This document shows positions 5,283 to 64,000 of a stretch of DNA of 64,000 bases, in pieces. A program made the translations under genes and the position numbers. The DNA comes from Candidatus Multivoradales bacterium (GTDB lineage: Bacteria; Acidobacteriota; Thermoanaerobaculia; Multivoradales; J023). Under the pieces are notes generated by a model that worked only from the letters and a program-made list of their open reading frames with translations, had not been told where the DNA came from and ran no database searches. The stretch's first letter is position 1, and the number at the start of each line of letters is the position of its first letter. Location: NCBI GenBank assembly GCA_965248925.1, contig CBDFLE010000005.1, forward strand, positions 864,001 to 928,000, written 5' to 3'.

Positions 5283-6409
5283 CCAGCTCGAAACCCCTCG
5301 ATGATCAAGTCTTCGCCCCGTCGCCGGGCACGCATTCCATCCAGCCGCGGCGCCGCCGCCAGCGGCTCAAAACCAGCACCACCCACCGGTCCCGGAGCCG
5401 AGACACCAGCGATCAGTAGCGGCGCGCAGTCGACTCCCACCCGATCGTAGAGCCCGGCGGCGACGAAGGCGGCGGTGATCTCGCTACCACCCTCGACTAA
5501 CAGACTCTGCACTCCGCGCCGACCCAAGTCGGCGAGAACGCTGGCCGGTGTCAGCCGATCGAGATATTGCACTTCGGCTCCTCGGTCGCTGAGCGCCGCC
5601 ACAGCCGCAGCATCCGATCTCTCAGTGTACACCAGCACCGGCCCCTCGATGCTCAGCATCCGCGCCGTCGGTGGCAGGCGCAGGCGACGATCAAGAACTA
5701 GCCGCAGATTTGCCCCAAGGGTCTTCTTCAAACGTCGGTTGAGGCTCGGATCGTCAGCCAGGGCGGTGCCGCTACCGACCAGAATGGCATCGTGGTCTTC
5801 GCGCTGCTCCATCCCCCAGCGACGGCCGGCGGCCGAGGAGATCCACTGGCTGTCGCCGCCGGCGGTGGCGATCTTGCCGTCGAGGCTCATCGCCCATTTG
5901 AGGCTGACCGCCGGACGGCCCATGGTCATGGCGACCAAGAAACGCCAGTTGAGCCGCACCGCCTGTTCAACCAGGTAGCCACAATCGACCTCGATACCCG
6001 CCGCGGCAATGCGCCGCAGGCCACGGCCGGCGACTTGCGGGTTGGGATCGCGATGGCAGACCACCACGCGGCGAACACCGGCGGCGATCACCGCTTCGCA
6101 GCAGGGACCGGTGCGGCCCTGATGGCTGCAAGGCTCGAGGGTGACGAAGAGGGTGGCACCCCGAGCCCGAGCGCCAGCGACCGCCAGCGCCTCGACCTCG
6201 GCATGGGGTCCACCGAGCTGCCGGTGCCAACCCTCCCCCACCACTTCCCCACCTGCTGTCACGACCACCGCGCCTACCTGGGGATTGGGAGAGGTGCCAA
6301 AACGACCGCGAGCGGCGAGCCGCAGAGCCCGTTGCAGAAAGGCGCAATCAACCGCGGCCAGCGGCCTATTCGAAGAGGGCAGCGGCAAACTCCTCAGCCT
6401 TGAATGCAA
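5246..6409 (-). CDS. ribD: Bifunctional riboflavin deaminase/reductase
   Basis: PNPQVGAV, HAEV, TLEPCSHQGRTGPC, SLDGKIA, LLVEGG; exact start uncertain. Confidence 0.95.
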   Translation of the reverse strand: MHSRLRSLPLPSSNRPLAAVDCAFLQRALRLAARGRFGTSPNPQVGAVVVTAGGEVVGEGWHRQLGGPHAEVEALAVAGARARGATLFVTLEPCSHQGRTGPCCEAVIAAGVRRVVVCHRDPNPQVAGRGLRRIAAAGIEVDCGYLVEQAVRLNWRFLVAMTMGRPAVSLKWAMSLDGKIATAGGDSQWISSAAGRRWGMEQREDHDAILVGSGTALADDPSLNRRLKKTLGANLRLVLDRRLRLPPTARMLSIEGPVLVYTERSDAAAVAALSDRGAEVQYLDRLTPASVLADLGRRGVQSLLVEGGSEITAAFVAAGLYDRVGVDCAPLLIAGVSAPGPVGGAGFEPLAAAPRLDGMRARRRGEDLIIEGFRAGCLADLCLSVAG

Positions 6410-7909: not shown

Positions 7910-9757
7910 TCAGTTGGGCGGCAAGACGGACGGAACGACTAAATCAATGCTGGTACTATCCACCTCTCCAGCGTCGTCTTGGCTTGCCGACTCTTGTGTT
8001 GGACGGATCTTAATGCGCCCGGCCTCCCAGGCCAACAAGAAGGCGGTGACGATCTTGGCATCAAACTTGGTTCCTGTGAGCTGCTTGATCCGATCGAGGG
8101 CATAATCGGTGGTGTAAGCGTTCTGATAGGGCCGGTTGGTAGTGATGGCGTCGAAGGTGTCGGCAACGGCGATAATCCGCGCCATCAGTGGAATCTGGTC
8201 GCCTTTCAGGCCATCCGGATAGCCAGAACCGTTCCAAGCTTCATGGTGCCAGCGGATGCCGGGAATCATCTGCCGCAGGTCGGAAATCGGCTCGACGATT
8301 TCGGCACCAACCACCGGGTGCAACTTCATCTGCTCGAATTCCTCGGCGGTTAGCACCCCCCCTTTCTTGAGCACTCGATCGTCCACCCCGATCTTGCCCA
8401 CATCGTGCAACACGGCGCTGATCCACACCCGCTGGCGAACGTCGGCGGGCAAGCCAAGGTGGCGAGCGATGGCCCGGCTATAGGCCGCTACCCGCTCGGA
8501 GTGGCCGCGAGTGTAGGGATCCTTGGCATCGATGGCAGCCGCGAACGCTCGAATCGAACTGATGAACAGCTCGCGATTGGCCTCGGCGGCACGTTTGAGC
8601 TGCTCGACATAGCTCTCGACGTGATCGCTCATGCGATTGAAATCGTCGGCCAGCTCAGCGATCTCGAAGCCTACCCATTCAGTATCGATGCGCTGGTGGA
8701 AGTGACCCTGGGCGATCTGATGGCTGGAATCCGTAAGCCGCTGTATCGGCCGGCTCAACCAGCGGGCGGCGGCCAAGGCAAAGACCGAAGCCAGAGCTAC
8801 CAAGAGCAGAGAAGAAAGCAGGGTGTTCATCGCCATCTGCTCAACTTCGACGAAAGCCGCCTTGGCAGGCATATGCGCCACCACCACCCAACCGCTTTCG
8901 GCCACTGGCGACACCCTGGCCAGAACTGGCAGCAGACGATCGCGCAGTTGCAAGTTGTAGCGGCGAGTCACCGAAATCGGCTGGCGGACAAAGTCACTGA
9001 CCAAGTCAGTCTCCATCAACGCCAGCTCTACTTCAGGGTCGCCATCGCCGGACCACAGCAACTGACCGGTGCGGTCGACGACGATGATCTCCTTGCTATT
9101 CAAGTTCACTTGCGAACGCAAGGTGGCGCGGATCAACGGCGGCTCGACCAGCGCCTGAGCGATCAAGCGCTCGCCGCTTGCTGCTTCGACCAGTACCGCC
9201 ACCGCCACCAGGGGTCGCTCGCCGCGGGGCAAAGCTGCAAACCGGTAGACCACTGATTCTGCCGCCAGGCTGGATTCCTGAAACGCCAAGGTCAAGGCTT
9301 GAGCAGCCGGTGCGCTGAGATCCTTGAAACCAAAGCGCAGACCATAGCCCTCTGCATTGGCCAAGCGCAGAACTACAATGTCGGGATGATCGTCGAAGAA
9401 AGAGCGCATCAACTCTTCGACCCAGGGCTCACCGAGTCGGGTTTTCACCGATTCGAGATCGGGCACCGCCAGCAACACTCTGCCCAGCTGGCGTAGCTCG
9501 GACCGGTACTTCGCCAACCCCTCGCTGAGTTCCTGCGCCAGGCTCTGCGCCGAAGTCGTCAGGCGAACTGTTTCGTGGGTCTCGAGAATGTCACGATTCT
9601 CGGCAATCAGCCGCCAGCTACTGATCAGCAGGGGAATGATGCCGGAGAACAACAGCAACAAAAAGAGCAAATAGCGCAGCTTGACCCGGCGCATGAAAGA
9701 GCGCAAGCGGCGCGGCGGCCGAGATGAAGACGTAGGGTTGCTGGCGTGCTCAGTCAA
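7910..9757 (-). CDS. Membrane HAMP + HD-GYP cyclic-di-GMP phosphodiesterase
   Basis: Two TM helices around a periplasmic sensor, HAMP (PIQRL...LADDFNRM), DPYTRGHS, LHDVGKIG, HHEAWNGSGYPDG. Confidence 0.92.
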   Translation of the reverse strand: MTEHASNPTSSSRPPRRLRSFMRRVKLRYLLFLLLLFSGIIPLLISSWRLIAENRDILETHETVRLTTSAQSLAQELSEGLAKYRSELRQLGRVLLAVPDLESVKTRLGEPWVEELMRSFFDDHPDIVVLRLANAEGYGLRFGFKDLSAPAAQALTLAFQESSLAAESVVYRFAALPRGERPLVAVAVLVEAASGERLIAQALVEPPLIRATLRSQVNLNSKEIIVVDRTGQLLWSGDGDPEVELALMETDLVSDFVRQPISVTRRYNLQLRDRLLPVLARVSPVAESGWVVVAHMPAKAAFVEVEQMAMNTLLSSLLLVALASVFALAAARWLSRPIQRLTDSSHQIAQGHFHQRIDTEWVGFEIAELADDFNRMSDHVESYVEQLKRAAEANRELFISSIRAFAAAIDAKDPYTRGHSERVAAYSRAIARHLGLPADVRQRVWISAVLHDVGKIGVDDRVLKKGGVLTAEEFEQMKLHPVVGAEIVEPISDLRQMIPGIRWHHEAWNGSGYPDGLKGDQIPLMARIIAVADTFDAITTNRPYQNAYTTDYALDRIKQLTGTKFDAKIVTAFLLAWEAGRIKIRPTQESASQDDAGEVDSTSIDLVVPSVLPPN

Positions 9758-54891: not shown

Positions 54892-55675
54892 ATTAGTACG
54901 GAATCGGTAGTGGCTCCGGCACCATCTTGAAATGGGCTTCAGAGAACGGATTGTCGTTGCTCGTGTAGGGCCGGTTCAGCGACCGTGTCATTCAGAGATC
55001 GGCCAGCAGTAGAGCCACCGGCTTGGATGCCATGCTCGAACCGCGGTCCGAGTGCAAGGTAAGTCGATCTCGCTCAACACCTTGCTTGTCAACACCTTGC
55101 TTGTCAACACCTTGCTTGTCAACACCTTGCTTCTCAACACTGTCGGCAATCAACCGCTTCGCGAGTCCTCCGGACTCGCGGCAGGCGAGCATCCAGCCGG
55201 CGATGTAGCGGCTGAAGACCTCCAGAATTACGTAAAGGTAGTAGTAGGTCCACTTCACCGGGCCATTGAGCTTGGTGATGTCCCACGACCACACCTCGTT
55301 CGGCCCTGTGGCCAGCAGTTCGGGCTTGGTGTAGTTGGGATGACGCCGCTGACGGCGTCGCTCGCGCAGCTCGCCCTCAGACTCCAGGACCCGGTACATG
55401 GTGCGCACCGAGCAGATATGGCGCTGATCCTCGTCCAGCAGCGCCGCCCAGACTTGACGCGGCGAGCGGTCGACGAAGCGCTCCGAGTGCAACACATCGA
55501 GGACCTCCTGGCGTTCAGCGGGCGTCAATGCCAGCGGCGGTCGAGGCCGCGTCGATAGCTGCGGCCCTGCGCCCTGCTGCCGACGGCGGCGATAGAAAGT
55601 GGCTCTGGGGACCGCCAAGGCGGCGCAGGCTGCCTGCACCCCCACCATCTCGGCCAGCGGCGCCACAGCGCTCAT
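54892..55675 (-). pseudogene. IS3 OrfB integrase-core transposase, inactivated
   Basis: PNEVWSWDIT, LHSDRG; TGA at 54992 followed in frame by ...NRPYTSNDNPFSEAHFK and then an apparent C-terminal deletion; 15-bp expansion inside. Confidence 0.85.
55074..55140. repeat. 15-bp tandem repeat, about 4.5 copies, inside IS3 orfB
   Basis: tcaacaccttgcttg units; encodes VEKQG-VDKQG-VDKQG-VDKQG-VE. Confidence 0.92.
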
Positions 55676-55700
55676 GACTGGCTCTCACTCGGCTCGATCC

Positions 55701-56054
55701 CTAGCAGCCGGGAAAGTTTTTTTGGACATCGATGATCGTCTCGGCTTTGTACAGCTGATGCTTGAGCCGGGCAATCTCACGCTCAAGCTCCGCGACGCGG
55801 CGGGCCTCAGCAGCGACCGGCCGACGCTTGCGACCGCGCTTCTTCGACAAACCGGCCAGAGCACTGGCATCGCGTTGCTGGCGCCAATTCGATAGTAGAG
55901 ATGAATACAGACCCTCCCGGCGGAGCAGGGCGCCAATCTCGCCGGGCTTGCTACAGGCGTCGGCAGCCTGGACGATGCTCAGCTTGTACGACGCGCTGTA
56001 CCGACGCCGCTTCGCCTTCTCAGTTACCTCTGGATCTCGTCGGTCAGCGCTCAT
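55701..56054 (-). CDS. IS3 OrfA HTH protein (A7 run near the 3' end, possibly frameshifted)
   Basis: DPEVTEKAKRRRYSASYKL...GEIGALLRREGLYSSLL..WR...IIDVQK. Confidence 0.8.
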   Translation of the reverse strand: MSADRRDPEVTEKAKRRRYSASYKLSIVQAADACSKPGEIGALLRREGLYSSLLSNWRQQRDASALAGLSKKRGRKRRPVAAEARRVAELEREIARLKHQLYKAETIIDVQKNFPGC

Positions 56055-56153
56055 ATCTCGCAGCTCGTGGCTTGGACTCGCCCTGGTGATTGCTCTCCAC
56101 GCCCTCACTAATTTCTCGGTACGGCAGTGTCTCACTTACATTGGCACAGAGGG

Positions 56154-56197
56154 CCGTGGCAGTACAGGGTGGAGATGGTAAGCTTGTGCTCGGTCAT
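56154..56197 (-). pseudogene. 5' stub of a second SymE-like gene, truncated by the IS3
   Basis: 41/44 nt identical to 63616-63659; encodes MTEHKLTISTLYCH versus MTEHKLTISALYRH; GAGGAGGA RBS upstream. Confidence 0.8.
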
Positions 56198-56377
56198 TGG
56201 GAATCCTCCTCTTCCGGAGAGCCGCCGGAACCCTGTCAACAGGGAATATGCGCTCTACGTGACTTTCCTGAACTTCATTTACGGTCTATGTGGATATACG
56301 TTATACGAGTATTTCAAACAAGAGGATATCCACCCTCGCCCACCGAAAACGAAAACTGCCCTTAGAATTGGGGAACG

Positions 56378-56749
56378 ATGCCGAGGAAAAAGCAGCCACC
56401 CACCGACTTTGGACATCGCCTGCCTGCCATCCGCAAGGCCAAAGGCTTCACCCAGGTTCAGCTTGCAGATGTGACCGGGACCACCCAGCGGGCGATCTCC
56501 TACTACGAAACGGAGGCCGGCTATCCACCGATGCCGGCGGTCGTCGCTCTGGCCCAGGCCCTCGGTGTTTCTGCCGATGAGTTGATGGGTCTCAAACAGC
56601 CCCAGGTCGACCTGCTCCAGGACGATCCCGAAACCCGCAGGATGTGGAAGAAGTTTCAGCAGGTCCGGACTCTGCCCGAGAGGGACCAACGAGCCGTAAT
56701 TCGGCTCGTCAATTCGCTTGCCTCAGCGAGTCAGCCCGCCACGGAGTAG
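56378..56749 (+). CDS. XRE-family HTH transcriptional regulator
   Basis: FGHRL..IRKAKGFTQVQLA..TGTTQRAISYYE...LAQALGVSADELMG. Confidence 0.92.
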   Translation: MPRKKQPPTDFGHRLPAIRKAKGFTQVQLADVTGTTQRAISYYETEAGYPPMPAVVALAQALGVSADELMGLKQPQVDLLQDDPETRRMWKKFQQVRTLPERDQRAVIRLVNSLASASQPATE

Positions 56750-56836: not shown

Positions 56837-57073
56837 TTACGCTTCGTCTCGAAGATGTAGATCGACGTTGATAGCGCACTCTTTCACGGTCCGCACAGCC
56901 GTTTTCCAATCCGCCCAAACAGCGGGATCAGCTGTCCCTTCATCCTGCAAGAGGCTCATACCTCCAAGCAGGGCGCCGAGATCGTCCGACTCGGTGCGTT
57001 GGTAGATCTCTTCGAGGAAAGCGAACATCGCGGCATAGGCTTCCCGTGTAGTTAAAGTATCCCCCATTGCCAC
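56837..57073 (-). CDS. Probable immunity protein of the upstream toxin
   Basis: 78-aa acidic ORF starting 2 nt after the toxin stop; position typical of cognate immunity genes. Confidence 0.7.
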   Translation of the reverse strand: MAMGDTLTTREAYAAMFAFLEEIYQRTESDDLGALLGGMSLLQDEGTADPAVWADWKTAVRTVKECAINVDLHLRDEA

Positions 57074-57075
57074 TC

Positions 57076-58161
57076 CTATTGGCCCGACAGGCCGGTTGTT
57101 GAGTCAAAGATTCGCGGTGTCTGGTTCAACCCGCCGTTTTTGATGACTCCATTGCGGCTCTGGACCCAAACCTGAGTGCCGTCGTCCAGTGTTCGTGCAG
57201 ACCAGACATTACCGAACTTGTCCGTTCCAAGGGCCGTTGAAGCGTCATCTGCGACCCCTTGCAGGAGCTTTCGGTTTGCTGGCGTGTCAGCGAGGTGACC
57301 AGGGGCGTCTCGGAAAATGTGCTTGATCTGACCAGGCTTACTGGGAAACCTCGCTGCCCCCCTTGGTACTCCGCGCGATCCCCGCTGAAAGACCTTACCA
57401 AGTCGAGCAAAGACAGCAGACAGCTTTGACCCAACATTAGGAAGTGCTTTTCGAGTAGCAGCGACAACAAGAGTCGTCTCGTCGACCGGCGAGAGAAGAC
57501 TGACGGCAAACAGCGCCCCCATACCTCGAGCATTGATGTTCTCGATGTATTGCTCCTGGGTGATCTCGCCCCGCATCAAGCGCTGTATATCTTGTTCGAG
57601 AGCCATCGCCGCACGGCTTTCTCGCCCATTGGAGTCGATCTCGTTGATCGGGTTGTTGGCCCCGTAGGTATAGCGGTTCCAGCTTCCAGGCGCGCTGACC
57701 TTGGCGGACCTCGCCGGATCGACACTCAAGAACCGCCCTAGCACTGGGCTACAATACCGAGCGTGCATGTAGTCCAGCTCGCTCCTCGCCCCGGTCCCGG
57801 TCTTGTCCCGCTCATGGCCAGTGAATTTCAGCTGAATCTCGTCAGCCTCCGCGCTGGTCGCCTCTTGACCAAAGGGAAAGTAGTTGTGCAACGCCACCTG
57901 CTGTCCGCCTCGGGTGAAGGGGACAGCCCGACGCGGTTTCCAGCTTGAGAGCTGGTAACCCTCTATGCCTGTTCTACTTAAGCCTCGCTCGGCCCTACTG
58001 CCGGCGGGGTCTTGGTGCTCGAAGGTCCAGAGGCGAGTTTCGGCGTAGCTCGACTCGGAGATCGGCGCGATCGCTGTTGCCGGCATCGTCACCGCCAGGA
58101 GCGCGACGACCAGCCCGAGCGCCATCGTCCAAGTGCTTCTTCCTTTAGCTGCCTGCCTCAT
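57076..58161 (-). CDS. Signal-peptide-bearing mini-Rhs polymorphic toxin
   Basis: Hydrophobic leader LGLVVALLAVTMPATA; Rhs-associated core YFPFG, KFTGHERD, DYMHARY..GRFLSVDP, NRYTY.NNP..IDSNG; C-terminal HIFRDAPGH...GNVW...GTQVWV domain. Confidence 0.85.
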   Translation of the reverse strand: MRQAAKGRSTWTMALGLVVALLAVTMPATAIAPISESSYAETRLWTFEHQDPAGSRAERGLSRTGIEGYQLSSWKPRRAVPFTRGGQQVALHNYFPFGQEATSAEADEIQLKFTGHERDKTGTGARSELDYMHARYCSPVLGRFLSVDPARSAKVSAPGSWNRYTYGANNPINEIDSNGRESRAAMALEQDIQRLMRGEITQEQYIENINARGMGALFAVSLLSPVDETTLVVAATRKALPNVGSKLSAVFARLGKVFQRGSRGVPRGAARFPSKPGQIKHIFRDAPGHLADTPANRKLLQGVADDASTALGTDKFGNVWSARTLDDGTQVWVQSRNGVIKNGGLNQTPRIFDSTTGLSGQ

Positions 58162-58242
58162 GCCGGGCCATTCTACGCCGCGGGTGGCGCTCGAAGACAG
58201 CGGCTAAAGGAGGAAGGGTGGTTGGTGCGGAGGCGGGATGCG

Positions 58243-58301
58243 GTTTTCTTAGGCCGCTTTCTTCGGGCAGTGGGTGTTTTCTTAGGTCGTTTTCGTCGGG
58301 C
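58243..58301. repeat. Two 26-bp direct repeats, 33-bp period
   Basis: gttttcttaggccgctttcttcgggc (58243-58268) and gttttcttaggtcgttttcgtcgggc (58276-58301). Confidence 0.8.
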
Positions 58302-58618
58302 TGGTCGTCGGAGCGAGCGCGGGTCTTTCCGGCAGTTTGGTGCCGGCGGCGCAGCCGCCAAACCAATCTGCACGTTGGGGGCGTGGTGGCGGCGGGGCCG
58401 GAGCCGAGCACGGCGACCGCAGGGCGCCGCGCGCAGGGTACGGAGGCCACGACGCAGGGCGGGTCTTGGGAGGAGGATGGGGAGCCCCCTTGAGGGGGCG
58501 GACGGGGCCGGGCCGAGCCGTCGCAGTGCTGGCTGGTGGATCTCGGCAAGGAGGCCCGGAGCGGGGCGTGGTTCCGAAGCCGCTGACCATCGCAGGCTCG
58601 CGGAGTGCTCACCCCAAG

Positions 58619-58644
58619 TTTCCATAATGCACGCGTTATGGAAA
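58619..58644. other. Symmetric dif/cer-like tyrosine-recombinase site (candidate att)
   Basis: TTTCCATAA-tgcacgcg-TTATGGAAA: perfect 9-bp arms with CATAA/TTATG inner cores as in E. coli dif, about 400 bp downstream of the recombinase gene. Confidence 0.7.
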
Positions 58645-59052
58645 GGCCGTAGGCCCGGAGCCGGGGCGTGTGAGGGCCAGGTCGGATAGGGCGCGCACTA
58701 TCGGACAGCGACCCATGCAAGCCGCGTGACACCTGGGAGGTCCGAGGAGGGGCCCAGGTGGCGCGCGGCTTGCGGAGCGGCTGGCCCGTGCCCGGAGGGA
58801 GCGCAGCGACCGGAGGGACACACGCCCCGGCGGAGCTTGGGGCGAGCTTTCGGAGACTCTTTTCTTGGACTACCTGAAGCCTCGCTCCGGGCCGGTGATC
58901 GGAGGGCTCAGGTGGTGGATCGCAGATGCTCGGGCCGGGGCGGGCAGGGGTGACAAAACAAACACCGCCGAGGGCTGCGTGGCCCGCGAGCGGAGGACGG
59001 CGCAGCCGGCCGCAGCGCGGGACCCGCAGACCCGGACCGCTTCGGGCGGGGG

Positions 59053-60126
59053 TCAGTCCTCCGCCTCGGTCTCGACTACATCGAGTAAGTCCTCGGCGGT
59101 CACTTCATCGCTGCCGTCTTCTTCTGTCGGCGGTGCCACCCGCCGCCCTAGCTTCGCGCCCGGATGGGTTGCCGAGTGGATCGACTTCAGTTTGCGGATC
59201 GATACCTGAGTGTAAATCTGCGTCGTCTCCAGCTTGGCATGGCCGAGCATCTGCTGAATGAAGCGGATATCCGCACCACCTTCGAGCATCAGCGTCGCCA
59301 TCGTGTGGCGGAAGAGATGGCAAGCGCCCGACTTGCCGAGATCGGCGGCGAGCACGTAGCCGCGCACCAGCTGACTCATTCGCGACGGAGCAAACGGCGT
59401 CCCCTGGTTGGTGAGAAAGAGCGTCCCGCCGTCCGGCTCGACCATCAGCGACGGCCGTACCTCAGTGACGTAGCGATCGATCCAGGCCAGCGCCCGCTCG
59501 CCGATCGGGATCATCCAGTCTTTCCGCCCCTTGCCCTGGCGCACCATCACCGTTCCGCGTTCGATGTCGAGATCGTAACGGCCGAGGCCGATCAGCTCAG
59601 CCCGGCGCATGCCGGTCGAGTAGAAGACTTCAAGGATCGTCCGGTCGCGCATCCCGAGTGGGTCGGCGGTGTCGGGCTGGTTGAGCACCTGGTCGGCTTC
59701 CGAGGCGGTCAGCACCGCCGCCGGCAACCGGTGCTCCAGCTTCGGCAGCTCCAGCTCCGAGGCCGGGTTGTAGAGCAGGTGGTTGGCCCGAGTCGCCCAC
59801 TTGAAGAAAGCCCGCACCGGCACCAGCCGCGAGTGCTGCGCCCGGAAAGACAGCGGCCGCCCGTCCCCAGGCTTGCGGTAGTGGTAGAGCCACCTGGCGT
59901 AGCGCTCCAGGATCGGCTTGGTCACTTCCGACGGCCGCGACACCCCACGCTCTTCACACCATGCGATGAGAAACGAGAGGTATAGATGCCGGTTCTCAAC
60001 GGTTCGTGGAGAGTAGTTCTTGATCGCCATCCACTCCAGGTACTGACCCGCCATCACCGCGAAGCCCCGAGGGTCGGTTGGATTGCCCGGCAAGAGGCGG
60101 ATCTTGCGCTCGCCACGGCGCGGCAT
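59053..60126 (-). CDS. XerC/XerD-like site-specific tyrosine recombinase
   Basis: N-terminal SAM-like domain; catalytic STGMRRAEL (R), GKGRK (K), HLFRH, LGHA, TTQIYT (Y). Confidence 0.95.
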   Translation of the reverse strand: MPRRGERKIRLLPGNPTDPRGFAVMAGQYLEWMAIKNYSPRTVENRHLYLSFLIAWCEERGVSRPSEVTKPILERYARWLYHYRKPGDGRPLSFRAQHSRLVPVRAFFKWATRANHLLYNPASELELPKLEHRLPAAVLTASEADQVLNQPDTADPLGMRDRTILEVFYSTGMRRAELIGLGRYDLDIERGTVMVRQGKGRKDWMIPIGERALAWIDRYVTEVRPSLMVEPDGGTLFLTNQGTPFAPSRMSQLVRGYVLAADLGKSGACHLFRHTMATLMLEGGADIRFIQQMLGHAKLETTQIYTQVSIRKLKSIHSATHPGAKLGRRVAPPTEEDGSDEVTAEDLLDVVETEAED

Positions 60127-63100
60127 CAGGGCCCCTCGACCGCCGCCGAGCCGCCGGTACGACGCCCAGATTTACGACATGACGGGCCGTTTTCTCGCAC
60201 CCCCTTATATGCGTTTTTTGCCGAAACCCCACGATTTCCGGCCGAAGTCGTTGATTCTGCTTGGGAAACTGCACCCCGACCACCCCCCGACACCCCCCCG
60301 ACTTGGGGCCGACTTGGCCCCGACTTCTCAGCTTCAGACCCCGACTTCTTTTCGTCGTACCTGAGTGTTTCGACCTCGATCAGCCCCGGCAGTCGCGGCC
60401 GCTCCGGTTCGTCGCTGGCCACGTAAACCAGCTCGTAGACAAAGCTCTGCCCCCGCCCGCCCTGATGCACCAGCAGATACTCAAACTCCTCAAGACGGCG
60501 TAGGTGCAGCTTCAGCTGCGTATTGCCCCAGCCGGTGTGCTCGCGCACCGCCCGCCGGCTGAAACGGTAGTCCGGCCGATCCATCGCCAGCGCCTCACAG
60601 GCTTCGCTGACCATCTCGTCGATCAGCCCCAGCAGGCGCCGCGTCTGCGGCGGCAGCTCATCGAGCGAGCGCCCCAAGACTTCGTGCGCCAGGCGGTTGG
60701 CTGTCTCGATGTCTGTGGCCACCACTTCGACGTACTCCACCTCTCGCCCGTCGACCACCGCCAGCTTCACCTCTCGCTGGTATTGATGCAAAAGAGCAAT
60801 CACGTCGATCAGCGTCAGGTACTTCTCGTGGTCCCGGCGGGTGCGGATTTGCGTATCGAGAAAGGTAAGTTCCGGAGCAAAGGGATTGACCACCGCCAGC
60901 GGCCGCAGCAGCCGCTGCGCGTTCTGGTGCAGCGCCATCACCCCGTCGCGCCGGGTGCGCGAGAGTAGCCCCTCCAGCGTCCGCCGCTGCCGCTGCAGCC
61001 GGTGAATCGCCCGCGTCTGCTCTCGCGCCTCGTCCACCGAGAGCACCAAGCAGCGATTCAAAAGCTCTTCATCGATGTCGATTGCCGTGGTCGTCAAGAA
61101 GATCATCACCGGCCCTTCGACGTGGTACTCGTGCGTCACCAGCTTGCCCGTTGAAGCATCCTTGCCGGTCGAGGCAATCGTCAGCTCGCCCTCCGACTGA
61201 AGCAGCTTCAAGGCGTAGCTAGCCCGCTCGGCCCCCTCCTCCTCGACGATCGCCAGGATCTTGTGCTGCAGATCCGTTTCGCCCATGTAGAACAGCGATT
61301 GCCCGGTCATCGCCGAGTACTTCACTTGCTGCTCACCTGGCATCAGCGACAGCACCGCCTCCATCAGCGCCGACTTGCCGGCCGCCGAGCTCGACTGCAC
61401 CACCACCGCCAAAGGCCGATCCAGAAAGCGCGAGGTGGCCGCCATATAGCCCATGAGCTTGTTGGTTTCCTCGCCCACCACCCCGCAGCGCTCGAAGTCC
61501 GCGAGGATGCGCACCAAGAGATCTGGTGAGCGCAGCAGCTCAAGCGCCGCTTCCTTCTCTCCCTCTGACAGCTCCACCGCCGTCGACTGCGGCTCGAGTG
61601 CTGAGCGGATCTGCTCGTCCTGCAGCTCCTCGAGCTTCAGCAGCACCTTGCCCAGATCCTTCTTGACCACCTTCTCATCGACCCCCAGTTCAGCGGCTGC
61701 CGCCCGCTGAAACACCGCGCGCGGCCGCGCAGCGTAGAGATCGAAGGTATCGACGTGGAAGGCGTCGCCGCGCGACGCCAAAACATTGACCTTGAGCACG
61801 TCGTAAGCCAGGTTCTTCGGCAGACCGCGAATCCTGTAGCGACGATCGCCCAGCGACAGCACCACCTCCTGATCGCGCACTTCCGCCGGCATATCTGGCG
61901 GAGGCGGGGCGGGCAATGGGGAGGCTTCGGCCGGGGCGACCGGCGCCAATACCGCCTCTGCGGCGGTATTAGGCCGTGTCGATTGCTCTGCCGGCGGTGC
62001 CAATGAGCCCACTATGGGCTCGTTGCCCAGTTTCACGTCGGGCGCCTTGCCTTTCCCGAGCCACTGTGCTTTGCGGATCACCACCCCCAGCGACTTCGCG
62101 GCTGGCGTCACCTTCAGCGCATATTCGTTGGCGTCCATGCCGCGCGGAAAGTGAATGCGATAGGCGTCGATCCCGGCACCCACCAGCTTCTCGGCCAGCT
62201 TCCCGGCGGCCTTCTCGCCGGCATCGTCCCGGTCGTAGGCGATCAGCACCCGCTCGACTCCGTGGCCACCGAAGGCTGCCAGCATCTCCGCGGTGAAACC
62301 CTGGATGCCGTAGGCGCTGGTGACGTTGCGGTAGCCCGCGCACCAGAAGGTCAGAGCGTCGATCAGCGACTCGCAAAGGATGATCTCGGTCGAGGCCACC
62401 AGAGCTTCCGCATTGAAGATCCCTCGATGCGGACCCGGCAGATAGAGATGCAAGGGTGTCCCCTTGCGAAGATTCAGTGTGATCTTTCGGCCGTAGATCT
62501 CCACCACCTGGCCTGTTGAATCGAAGACCGGAAAGACGATCGAGCCATTGAAGTGCTCATGACCCGACTTGCGCAGCACGCCGAGCTTCTGCAATCGACC
62601 CCGCATCTCCTTACCCGCCTTCAGCTGCTTCGATGGCAGTCGATAGCCCAGCGTCCGGTTGGCGAAGCCAAGCCTGAAATGCTCGATCATCTCCGGGTGC
62701 TTCAGCCCTCTGCTCTCCAGATAAGCCAGCGCCTCCGGGCTCTCCTTCAAAGCCTCGTGGTAGTAGCCGACGACCTGACCGAGTAGCTCCGCGTCCTCTG
62801 CTTCCGCCACCACCGGCGAAGGCAGGGCCGGCGCCGAAGGCAACGCCTCTGCGACCGCCTCCGCCGGCAGATCCGAGCGCAGCAGCTCGACCGCGTGGCG
62901 AAACGAAACCCCGCGATCTCGCATCACCCAATCGATCACCGACCCGCCCGCCTGGCAGGCGCCCAGGCAATGCCACAGATTCTTCTTCGGCGAGATCACC
63001 AGCGACGGCTCGCGGTCGTCGTGAAACGGGCAGAGCCCCAGCAGGTCCGCCCCGTGGCGTTTCAGTTTCACCCCACGGGCCAGGGCCAGGCGCTCCACCG

Positions 63101-63149
63101 ATACTTCTCGCTTTAGTCGCTCTACCTCGGCTTCTGGAATCCTGCTCAC
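60126..63149 (-). CDS. CHC2 zinc-finger DnaG-type primase fused to a P-loop ATPase/helicase
   Basis: CPFH...WHCLGAC, TOPRIM LCESLIDAL / YDRDDAG, Walker A-like SSSAAGKS, IVEEEG, LLNR; GTG 63149 overlaps the upstream stop. Confidence 0.9.
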   Translation of the reverse strand: MSRIPEAEVERLKREVSVERLALARGVKLKRHGADLLGLCPFHDDREPSLVISPKKNLWHCLGACQAGGSVIDWVMRDRGVSFRHAVELLRSDLPAEAVAEALPSAPALPSPVVAEAEDAELLGQVVGYYHEALKESPEALAYLESRGLKHPEMIEHFRLGFANRTLGYRLPSKQLKAGKEMRGRLQKLGVLRKSGHEHFNGSIVFPVFDSTGQVVEIYGRKITLNLRKGTPLHLYLPGPHRGIFNAEALVASTEIILCESLIDALTFWCAGYRNVTSAYGIQGFTAEMLAAFGGHGVERVLIAYDRDDAGEKAAGKLAEKLVGAGIDAYRIHFPRGMDANEYALKVTPAAKSLGVVIRKAQWLGKGKAPDVKLGNEPIVGSLAPPAEQSTRPNTAAEAVLAPVAPAEASPLPAPPPPDMPAEVRDQEVVLSLGDRRYRIRGLPKNLAYDVLKVNVLASRGDAFHVDTFDLYAARPRAVFQRAAAAELGVDEKVVKKDLGKVLLKLEELQDEQIRSALEPQSTAVELSEGEKEAALELLRSPDLLVRILADFERCGVVGEETNKLMGYMAATSRFLDRPLAVVVQSSSAAGKSALMEAVLSLMPGEQQVKYSAMTGQSLFYMGETDLQHKILAIVEEEGAERASYALKLLQSEGELTIASTGKDASTGKLVTHEYHVEGPVMIFLTTTAIDIDEELLNRCLVLSVDEAREQTRAIHRLQRQRRTLEGLLSRTRRDGVMALHQNAQRLLRPLAVVNPFAPELTFLDTQIRTRRDHEKYLTLIDVIALLHQYQREVKLAVVDGREVEYVEVVATDIETANRLAHEVLGRSLDELPPQTRRLLGLIDEMVSEACEALAMDRPDYRFSRRAVREHTGWGNTQLKLHLRRLEEFEYLLVHQGGRGQSFVYELVYVASDEPERPRLPGLIEVETLRYDEKKSGSEAEKSGPSRPQVGGVSGGGRGAVSQAESTTSAGNRGVSAKNAYKGVRENGPSCRKSGRRTGGSAAVEGP

Positions 63150-63370
63150 TGTGCCGCCCCCGACTCCACCGGAGTAAGCACCAAACGATCCTGCTCGACC
63201 TCCACCCGCAGCCTCTCCCCGCAGCGAAACCCCGCCGCTTCTAGCCAAGCACCCCGCATCCGCACAAACGGCACAAGCCGCACCGAGCACGGGCCGTTGA
63301 CGTAGTGCGGCGCACGGGGCTCGTGCAGGGTAGAGATCGTCAGATATCGCTCAGCTCTCGGCTCAGACAC
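63146..63370 (-). CDS. SymE-family (AbrB-fold) small protein
   Basis: PFVRMRGAWLEAAGFRCGERLRVEV...LVLT matches the SymE pattern PxxxLxGxWLxxAGFxxGxxvxVxV. Confidence 0.85.
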   Translation of the reverse strand: MSEPRAERYLTISTLHEPRAPHYVNGPCSVRLVPFVRMRGAWLEAAGFRCGERLRVEVEQDRLVLTPVESGAAQ

Positions 63371-63659
63371 AGGCCACTCCCGCCAGGCGACCCGCCGAGA
63401 CCTCCTCGATCCGGCCGATCTGATCCGCCGGCACCCACACCACCGGCTGCATTTCCCTCTCCTCCTCGCCCTCTTCCACCCGCGTCACCACCAAACGCCC
63501 GTCACCCACGACGTCCACCCGCACCTGGGCTCCAGGATAGAAGCCGGCGTCGCGCATCCACAGCCCCGCCAGCTGCAGCAGCGGTAGCTGCGCGGACTTG
63601 GGGAAGGCGTGCCAACCGTGGCGGTACAGGGCGGAGATGGTTAGCTTGTGCTCGGTCAT
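63363..63659 (-). CDS. SymE-family (AbrB-fold) small protein
   Basis: PLLQLAGLWMRDAGFYPGAQVRVDV..GRLVVT; GGAGG RBS. Confidence 0.85.
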   Translation of the reverse strand: MTEHKLTISALYRHGWHAFPKSAQLPLLQLAGLWMRDAGFYPGAQVRVDVVGDGRLVVTRVEEGEEEREMQPVVWVPADQIGRIEEVSAGRLAGVACV

Positions 63660-63712
63660 CGGTCTGCCTCCAAATTTCTTCAGTTAACTCAGATGCAACT
63701 CATCTGTGCTCT

Positions 63713-63741
63713 ACAGTACCAATCGGTTGCATTGGTGTCAA
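63713..63741 (-). promoter_or_regulatory. Sigma70 promoter of the SymE-primase-recombinase operon, with an operator palindrome in its spacer
   Basis: Minus strand TTGACA-17-TACTGT; ACCAAT-N7-ATTGGT palindrome (63718-63736) fills the spacer. Confidence 0.7.
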
Positions 63742-63753
63742 GCCTGCAATGTC

Positions 63754-63782
63754 TTGACGCATACCTTCGGGTTGCCTAGAAT
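63754..63782 (+). promoter_or_regulatory. Sigma70 promoter of the XRE gene
   Basis: TTGACG-17-TAGAAT. Confidence 0.7.
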
Positions 63783-63828
63783 TAACTCAGGACGGAAAAA
63801 GGCGTACAAGAAAGGACTGGAAGGTTCT

Positions 63829-64000
63829 ATGAGCCAAGAAAGCGGCACGATCAAGACACGGTTCGGCAAGCGAGTTCTTGAGCTACGCAAGACTCGCAGC
63901 TGGAAGCAAGACGAGCTTGGCAAAAAGCTCGGCACTTCGGGCGTCGTCATCGGGCGCTACGAGCGAGGCGAGGTGATGCCGTCGATCAAGGTGGCTCAGA
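63829..64000 (+). CDS. XRE-family HTH regulator (partial, runs off the window)
   Basis: Manual translation MSQESGTIKTRFGKRVLELRKTRSWKQDELGKKLGTSGVVIGRYERGEVMPSIKVAQ... Confidence 0.88.
   Translation, partial: MSQESGTIKTRFGKRVLELRKTRSWKQDELGKKLGTSGVVIGRYERGEVMPSIKVAQ

Follow-up and report, generated by a model that had tools for sequence, protein, structure and literature searches.

The closest described counterparts of the locus reported here are recombination sites of the Xer type. Plasmid multimer-resolution sites such as cer and psi, which are served by host XerCD, are recombinase-type sites carried, as here, by small circular replicons; cer has an 8-bp spacer and about 180 nucleotides (nt) of accessory sequence that binds ArgR and PepA, and in the loxP/Cre system of P1 and the rfsF/ResD system of F the recombinase gene lies beside the plasmid resolution site. 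Here we describe a 26-bp palindrome, palindrome B, in a stretch of 64,000 nt from Candidatus Multivoradales bacterium (contig CBDFLE010000005.1, positions 864,001 to 928,000; hereafter the window), where it accompanies a second palindrome, A, in the non-coding region of a mobile element that encodes its own Xer-family tyrosine recombinase. We compared this element with 79 related loci from species-representative genomes of many phyla (L001-L079; 629,222 nt; all L-numbers denote related loci). Unlike the plasmid sites, which have a single heterologous core, the element carries two homopalindromes, and it is mostly integrated. Chromosomal dif, the site of XerCD, shares with palindrome B inverted arms of about 11 nt, inner CATAA/TTATG bases, a palindromic layout and a low G+C content within G+C-rich DNA (as set out in PMC2731167), and delta-type dif arm sequences match the arms of A and B. 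However, sites of the dif/cer/psi class normally combine one XerC with one XerD arm, whereas B has two XerD-type arms; the spacer of B is 8 nt as opposed to the 6 nt of dif; and B lies inside a mobile island beside the element's own recombinase gene. Moreover, B is not located at a GC-skew switch: the cumulative skew falls monotonically over the window, and its sole local excursion is the non-coding region.

The attachment site of the CTX phage is a hairpin made of two sites. Our gammaproteobacterial relatives (L007, L008, L013, L032, L077 and the Escherichia coli units) resemble it in having two inverted dif-like sites able to pair, whereas A and B of the window are each self-complementary and not mutually complementary. 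The element further differs from this phage, whose single-stranded genome is integrated through the host dimer-resolution system (PMC3089051), in encoding its own recombinase and primase and in being integrated at toxin loci instead of dif. A recombinase gene linked to its dif-like motif, as found here, is also known from XerS/difSL and XerH/difH (PMC2731167); these systems resolve dimers of the chromosome itself, whereas ours belongs to a mobile element and its protein scores below the cut-offs of the XerS and XerA models. Tyrosine recombinases that adjoin arrays of polymorphic-toxin tips with their immunity genes, and conserved motifs in the intergenic stretches, have been reported for rAID arrays (PMC12247911), for XerC/D beside polyimmunity loci (PMC3482391) and in a preprint (bioRxiv 10.64898/2026.07.13.738213); the sections of these reports on such arrays mention no primase, whereas here each unit has a primase, a regulator and a recombinase. 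The same gene trio as in our units, SymE-cHTH-'Prim-Hel', was described adjoining haemagglutinin and RHS genes by Kawano et al. (2007; PMC1891008), in a section that mentions neither a recombinase nor a site. In the related literature we found no description of paired XerC-arm/XerD-arm palindromes or of their fold; a Current Biology paper of 2026 on Rhs poly-immunity arrays (doi 10.1016/j.cub.2025.11.047) may overlap.

Palindrome B (58619-58644, no strand assigned; TTTCCATAA-TGCACGCG-TTATGGAAA, that is, two XerD-type arms in the form TTTCCATAA-N8-TTATGGAAA) is a perfect 9-nt inverted repeat around an 8-nt spacer and lies 410 nt beyond the stop codon of the recombinase gene. Its sequence and coordinates agree exactly with a preliminary description of this DNA, which had pointed out an AT-rich perfect repeat in GC-rich DNA, and this composition is borne out as well. 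The kilobase around B has 69% G+C and a GC skew of +0.18 that differs from that of its flanks. Perfect 9-nt inverted repeats with spacers of 4-10 nt number eight in the window (mean 2.5 and maximum 6 in 30 first-order Markov simulations), and only palindrome B among them has an arm with at least seven A/T in nine positions, an arm that none of the 30 simulations produced. It is the sole match to its pattern in the window, even when three mismatches are allowed, its half-site has no further copy there, and 0 of 100 dinucleotide shuffles of the window contained the pattern. Palindrome B is real and not a product of chance.

The comparison of relatives revealed which parts of the site are conserved. 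The exact arms of B occur in none of the 79 loci, and with up to two mismatches in two of them (L001, L017). We searched for the core CATAA-N5-11-TTATG, with at most one mismatch, in the 72 loci whose available sequence past the recombinase stop amounts to 300 nt or more: 22 matches lie in the first 250 nt after the stop, 10 at 250-500 nt, and 0-4 in every other 250-nt bin. Related sites thus do recur downstream of homologous recombinases, whereas absence of the motif next to them would have refuted the preliminary description; 24 of the 72 loci have at least one core within 750 nt of the stop. Orthologues of B, of the form TTTACATAA-N5-8-TTATGTAAA, are found in L001, L002, L003, L010, L017, L022, L046 and L063, the loci which together with the window share an alignable non-coding region (nine loci). 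Between L001 and L017 this region is 84% identical, compared with 71% for the recombinase gene, and an nhmmer search with it returned the nine training loci, L047 twice and L060. In the window, palindrome A (58681-58706, no strand assigned; GTCGGATAG-N8-CTATCGGAC, two XerC-type arms) lies 62 nt from B. Its orthologues read either GTCCGATAA-N7/8-TTATCCGAC (L003, L010, L046, L063, L034, L050) or TCGCATAA-TGCGCA-TTATGCGA, and A precedes B by 58-162 nt across the loci that share the non-coding region. In B, the inner CATAA/TATG bases are invariant in all nine aligned loci and the outer arm bases change jointly on both arms, a pattern expected of a sequence-specific dimeric binder.

The arms can be assigned by comparison with published dif sites. 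Table 1 of Carnoy and Roten (2009; PMC2731167) gives dif as AGGTCCGATAA-CATGCG-TTATGTAAACT in Myxococcus xanthus, as ACGTCCGATAA-TATGGA-TTATGGTAACT in Anaeromyxobacter and as GGTGCGCATAA-TGTATA-TTATGTTAAAT in E. coli, the last in agreement with the sequence quoted in the preliminary description. The right B arm of the window, TTATGGAAACT, matches the XerD arms of both M. xanthus and Anaeromyxobacter at 10 of 11 positions, which upholds the dif-like character originally ascribed to the palindrome. Against the M. xanthus XerD arm the two B arms of the window score 10/11 and 8/11, and the right B arm of L010 scores 11/11; the arms of palindrome A match the XerC arm AGGTCCGATAA at 8-10 of 11 positions. 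Judged by sequence likeness, the A arms are delta-type XerC arms and the B arms delta-type XerD arms. The gammaproteobacterial relatives have two heterologous dif-like sites with gamma-type arms, arranged in inverted order with a small hairpin between them. Site 1 of the E. coli unit, ATTCAACATAA-N9-TTATGCGCACT, is identical to each E. coli dif arm at 10 of 11 positions, and the two sites of the unit (L085, 21300-21450) are imperfect inverted copies of one another. The pair lies 167-291 nt past the stop in all five E. coli recombinase copies inspected and also in a circular record labelled Shigella. In one genome, two units differ by a single G in the spacer of site 1, which is a run of G (L085, 21320 and 30166). 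For this small sample, these matches suggest that the sites track the dif arms of the host type while the recombinase family is conserved across phyla, so that host XerC/XerD may be involved. Xer-type sites are also seen past the cargo genes of L060 (10704-10901) and L084 (12700-12820), and the cargo of L047 is flanked by A-B ... B'-A' in inverted order (939-1130, 6148-6230, 8731-8922).

The recombinase gene (59053-60126, minus strand; 357 amino acids, aa) encodes a protein of the Xer family (PF00589, 3e-37) that reaches 427.7 bits with the NCBIfam 'XerC' subfamily model NF002331 (cut-off 371), so the label 'recombinase' given to it earlier is well founded. It stays below the cut-offs of canonical XerC (TIGR02224, 222.4 versus 335.15) and XerD (TIGR02225, 217.3 versus 329.6), and its best solved relative is E. 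coli XerD (2e-39). An integron integrase was considered and rejected, as TIGR02249 scores 101 against a cut-off of 265. Residues R174/R175, K199, H270, R273, H296 and Y305 occupy invariant columns in 26 aligned sequences; we take them, from the order of the R, K, H-x-x-R, H and Y motifs, to have the corresponding catalytic roles, and on this alignment the catalytic residue set of a tyrosine recombinase is present. Searches turned up more than 8000 proteins related to it, and identity is 64% or higher for each of the 120 listed.

This recombinase is part of a unit with a recurrent gene order: XRE regulator, SymE-like protein, DnaG-type primase, recombinase, non-coding region and toxin cargo, with units in tandem. 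The primase gene ends no more than 700 nt upstream of the recombinase gene in 71 of the 79 loci, and three of the eight loci without an upstream primase have less than 250 nt of upstream sequence. Several of the 79 loci hold two units, and the genome of the window has at least one further copy on the same contig; further near-identical recombinase genes lie on this 2.36-Mb contig and on a contig of 5.2 Mb. With its primase-type replication protein, toxin-antitoxin pairs and recombinase, the backbone resembles a plasmid maintenance kit. Where downstream genes of related loci are recognisable, they encode tips of polymorphic toxins and immunity proteins (YwqJ deaminase, EndoU with CdiI_4, Imm70 and RHS repeats), and 8 of the 79 loci have an Rhs-core match downstream, on the same strand. 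In Paraburkholderia, tandem units follow filamentous-haemagglutinin/ShlB genes; on a Pseudomonas aeruginosa plasmid a unit follows tpsA2 and an immunity gene, and in Janthinobacterium one follows an FG-GAP toxin gene. Among 5,426 complete E. coli genomes, 56 carry the E. coli unit, with 197 occurrences in total, each on a chromosome. Furthermore, there are circular records made solely of units, one of 8,758 bp (labelled Shigella flexneri) and one of 11,289 bp (Lonsdalea), the former with 98% identity to a single period of a tandem array in the E. coli D6 chromosome. Such records may represent episomes that were excised, or may have arisen in the assembly of tandem repeats.

Some further observations concern the forms and the sequence of the units. 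The two circular records just named (L081 and L082) were deposited as small plasmids and consist of one or two units and nothing else. Whole units are duplicated in tandem in L047 (1-3264 and 7793-11056, 100% identical) and L032 (1-3859 and 7129-10987, 99.97%), and these duplications may reflect real amplification or an effect of assembly. A 9-nt motif, TTTAGC[CT]GC, has 115 copies on the sense strand and 61 as the complement in L001-L079, compared with 3.2 and 4.2 in block shuffles. It has fixed positions: in the primase linker, at the primase/recombinase junction, in the recombinase tail and just upstream of the cargo, and in the window it is found at 58200-58208 and 58144-58152. Since the motif is read in differing frames, and with the rare codon TTA, the constraint acts on the nucleotides.

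We consider it about an even chance (roughly 0.5) that palindrome B is a Xer-type recombinase-binding element which, together with A, forms a recombination locus acting between copies of the element, in resolution or in integration. B would then be a putative binding element for a Xer-family recombinase, a homopalindrome of the XerD-type half-site; the recombination locus of the mobile element would comprise both homopalindromes, B and the XerC-type A, and the conserved stems that surround them. The most likely task of such a locus would be to release unit circles from multimers or tandem arrays or, alternatively, to join a circle to a resident copy of the element; the recombinase encoded by the element would catalyse this, perhaps with assistance from host XerC/XerD. 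The circular and tandem forms of the unit are those that a resolution or integration site would interconvert. We infer binding, catalysis, the acting protein and the type of reaction at the A/B locus from direct observations on the site and its conservation, its Xer-type arms, their concerted changes, and the architecture and distribution of the element.

Several observations weigh against such a role. Neither at B nor at A did any sequence show a recombination junction or crossover, and pairwise mapping of boundaries among relatives gave no similarity break at either palindrome. The window has a single copy of B. A shufflon or invertible segment was rejected as well, as it needs at least two inverted site copies, and an inversion between the two E. 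coli sites was not seen, the 52-nt segment between them having the same orientation in both D6 units. No CATAA-type core was found in the first 750 nt in 48 of the 72 loci, and the Paraburkholderia and P. aeruginosa units are devoid of any such core. The spacer of B, 8 nt in the window, is 5, 7 or 8 nt among orthologues, and that of E. coli site 1 is 9 versus 10 nt inside one genome; variable spacers would be odd for a duplex crossover core. In L047, L060 and L084 sites are located after the cargo. The D6 array starts and ends at a repeat of about 75 nt, the Rhs core-end repeat, and not at the dif-like pair, and the step in identity between its two units is located at the start of the primase gene. 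Finally, two stems next to the palindromes, P1 and P2, with P1 closing over P2 and A, show compensatory changes, which point to a folded single strand and not to plain duplex binding sites.

The fold was drawn by hand as five helices (P1 enclosing P2 and A, followed by B) on an alignment of five sequences of the same sub-architecture. The long hairpin P2 (58717-58773, minus strand) has 21-nt arms that are 90% complementary and contain the invariant GTCAC...CTTGCA; it is present in the minimum-energy fold of both strands, and 8 of its 17 pairs are changed on both sides. The outer stem P1 (58674-58787, minus strand) encloses P2 and palindrome A through pairing of 58781-58787 with 58674-58680 in the centroid fold; two of its seven pairs have both sides changed, and 97% of its cells are paired. 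Across the five sequences 92.9% of the cells pair, compared with 30-41% when partners are slid, a contrast that is inflated because the structure was derived from the same sequences. Moreover, 14 of 42 pairs are changed on both sides, and none of 500 shuffles reached any of five measures. Palindrome A keeps C.C at arm position 4 in all five aligned sequences, so its arms are never complementary at that position. In hairpin B the window has C-G in place of A-T in the other four sequences, and the inner five pairs are constant. Single-stranded DNA of both strands is predicted to form hairpin B (folding versus shuffles, z = -2.4 and -3.4), and RNAalifold on a rough alignment of nine sequences recovered hairpin B alone.

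Other elements of the non-coding region can be placed around this fold. A short G+C hairpin (58484-58499, minus strand; GCCCCC-loop-GGGGGC) has a conserved position and a variable loop in the window, L001, L003, L010, L017 and L063. An inverted repeat, CTTCCTCCTTTAGCCGC-N47-GCAGCTAAAGGAAGAAG (58136-58216, minus strand), overlaps the start of the cargo gene with its second arm, and its TTTAGCYGC / GCRGCTAAA pair lies upstream of the cargo in many loci. Two 26-nt direct repeats (GTTTTCTTAGGCCGCTTTCTTCGGGC, 88% identical, 33 nt apart) are found at 58243-58301 in the distal non-coding region. The GTCAC-N5-CTTGCA in the 3' arm of P2 (58717-58773 and orthologues) has what we take to be the -24/-12 spacing of sigma-54 promoters, without the GG.

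As a tentative possibility, the region could be a folded single-stranded attachment site, in which the duplex arms offered by hairpins A and B would be of the XerC type and the XerD type, respectively, with both hairpins held together by P1 and P2. Xer-family enzymes, namely the element's paralogue with, or instead of, host XerC/XerD, would recombine the strand of the episome, and the primase would prime the complement. In the gammaproteobacterial relatives, the two inverted dif-like sites would instead pair into one CTX-like hairpin. It is unlikely that the folded single strand serves replication, in which case the DnaG-type primase(-helicase) would use it as an origin or a priming signal, two of whose hairpins would be A and B. 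Phage G4 and RSF1010 have priming signals of the hairpin kind, and the conserved pairing with its two-sided changes, the folding of both strands below shuffles, the varying loop lengths and the primase gene directly upstream in 71 loci would all suit such a signal; however, the invariant CATAA/TTATG and the 10-11/11 matches to XerC/XerD arms would be left unexplained, and origin features such as iterons or an AT-rich stretch were not seen.

The preliminary description had interpreted B as the crossover site of a single element-encoded recombinase, at which exchange would swap the toxin cassette with respect to the replication module. Identical arms would suit one protein, the non-coding region separates the conserved module from the variable cargo, and in L047 A-B and an inverted B'-A' lie on either side of the cargo. 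However, conservation extends 100-150 nt beyond B to the start of the cargo, and the window offers one B only. Nor need the enzyme be a single element-encoded one in place of host XerC and XerD, since the arms follow the dif arms of the host type and host Xer proteins may act. The boundaries of the E. coli units also argue against a crossover at the palindrome. E. coli D6 has two 7.1-kb units, 94.3% identical to each other, behind vgrG and a full-length rhs gene with the associated immunity gene; the non-coding region abuts the Rhs core-end repeat directly, and in the E. coli relatives the dif-like pair is 660-740 nt away from this junction. In strain FDAARGOS_1373, the genes for SymE, regulator, primase and recombinase come immediately after the main rhs tip and its immunity gene. 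The swap of toxin cassettes at the palindrome is therefore not supported by the E. coli arrays, whose limits lie at the core-end repeat, and we regard this interpretation as rather unlikely.

The stacked E. coli units look like the outcome of stepwise displacement of toxin tips by incoming circles. The arrays fit an insertion of circles through exchange at the Rhs core end, which would place a new tip onto the resident gene and push the old tip downstream; toxin-tip exchange would thus need no crossover at the Xer-type sites, and palindrome B is probably not the point at which tips are exchanged. In L085 (9975-34243) and L087 (1-18742), units are stacked behind the main rhs gene and bounded by the repeat of about 75 nt.

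The same covariation could also come from a structured RNA, either a leader of the cargo toxin mRNA or a trailer of the recombinase operon, with hairpin B controlling toxin expression. We find this quite improbable. The region does lie between two co-oriented genes, and the final inverted repeat extends into the stretch where ribosome binding and the start of the cargo gene are located; however, no Rfam family matched the window at gathering score (best E-value 0.27), no promoter-like site was found, the match of the stem sequence to Xer arms is left unexplained, and in some loci the sites come after the cargo. A promoter or terminator reading of palindrome B was likewise rejected, given no promoter-like site and two terminator-like matches that lie elsewhere. 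A coding reading of the region was also rejected: the open reading frames (ORFs) 58145-58732 (minus strand) and 58012-58689 (plus strand) belong to no family, the indels among relatives are not multiples of three, and the differences in spacer length break the reading frame.

It is very improbable that B is an operator for the XRE or the SymE/AbrB-type DNA-binding protein of the element: the palindrome has a suitable size and such proteins are encoded in each unit, whereas the divergent promoter region between the regulator and SymE genes (63660-63830) contains other repeats, none of them like the B arms, and the Xer-arm match would have no explanation. A chance palindrome, of which 2.5 perfect repeats are expected per window in the simulations, is practically negligible as an explanation, being contradicted by the uniqueness of B, the controls for AT-rich arms, its conservation, the clustering of cores after the stop and the paired changes of the arms.

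The setting of palindrome B is a chromosomal island and not a plasmid. The window carries aspS, ftsY, aroB, a type II/IV secretion ATPase and a long glycosyltransferase/sulfatase (exopolysaccharide) cluster, and the island occupies its right-hand 10 kb. A plasmid with a replication module is ruled out by these core chromosomal genes; megablast against plasmids gave only a 72% match in the primase gene, and the non-coding region (58162-59052) had no match among plasmids. No tRNA lies within the window, which leaves no sign of a tRNA-linked integration there.

At its right end the island is cut by the window within a divergent XRE-type helix-turn-helix regulator (63829-64000, plus strand), recognised by its likeness to 56378-56749 and by annotated neighbours. 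It is followed by a small SymE-like protein with an AbrB fold (63363-63659, minus strand; PF08845, 6e-8) and by the DnaG-type primase (60126-63290, minus strand; 1054 aa), the stop of which overlaps the start of the recombinase gene. The long C-terminal half of the primase gave a weak P-loop match alone (E = 0.078); the legend to Fig. 7 of PMC1891008 names this type of primase 'Prim-Hel', with an MCM-like AAA+ helicase. From the recombinase stop to the cargo start extends the conserved non-coding region of about 890 nt (58162-59052, minus strand), as defined by the nine-locus alignment. The cargo gene (57076-58161, minus strand) encodes 361 aa with a signal-peptide-like N-terminus, an Rhs core end (TIGR03696, 7e-17) and a tip of about 180 aa, and cargo leaders resembling this signal-peptide-like start are present in related loci. 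Its earlier label as a toxin holds in so far as the Rhs-associated core domain is concerned; the C-terminal 180 or so residues matched no family in profile searches. Right after it, an ORF of 78 aa (56837-57073, minus strand), for which no family was found, is possibly an immunity gene, judging by position only.

Beyond this ORF lies a decayed second unit (54992-56749), which comprises an XRE-type regulator (56378-56749, plus strand; HTH_3, 9e-12) and the start of a second SymE-like gene (56150-56209, minus strand), 86% identical to 63616-63671 and cut at about 16 codons. It is truncated by an insertion sequence of the IS3 family (54992-56150, minus strand; rve, HTH_32, transposase-like frame).

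Overall, palindrome B belongs to a very common and barely described vehicle, with more than 8000 relatives of its recombinase and a presence in 56 of 5,426 E. coli genomes, that combines a primase-type replicon, toxin-antitoxin genes, a Xer paralogue, Xer-type sites and toxin-immunity cargo. Rhs and contact-dependent inhibition (CDI) loci diversify by gaining toxin tips and immunity genes, and the travel of these cassettes is largely unexplained. The element would also account for assemblies that break at such loci. XerC-arm and XerD-arm palindromes inside a covarying fold provide a concrete test substrate for work on Xer recombination, and the E. coli version of the unit represents a tractable model system. 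If the region does act as a folded single-stranded attachment site, these units would be phylum-spanning, Xer-exploiting elements with their own recombinase and primase, which stack toxin tips onto Rhs and CDI genes.

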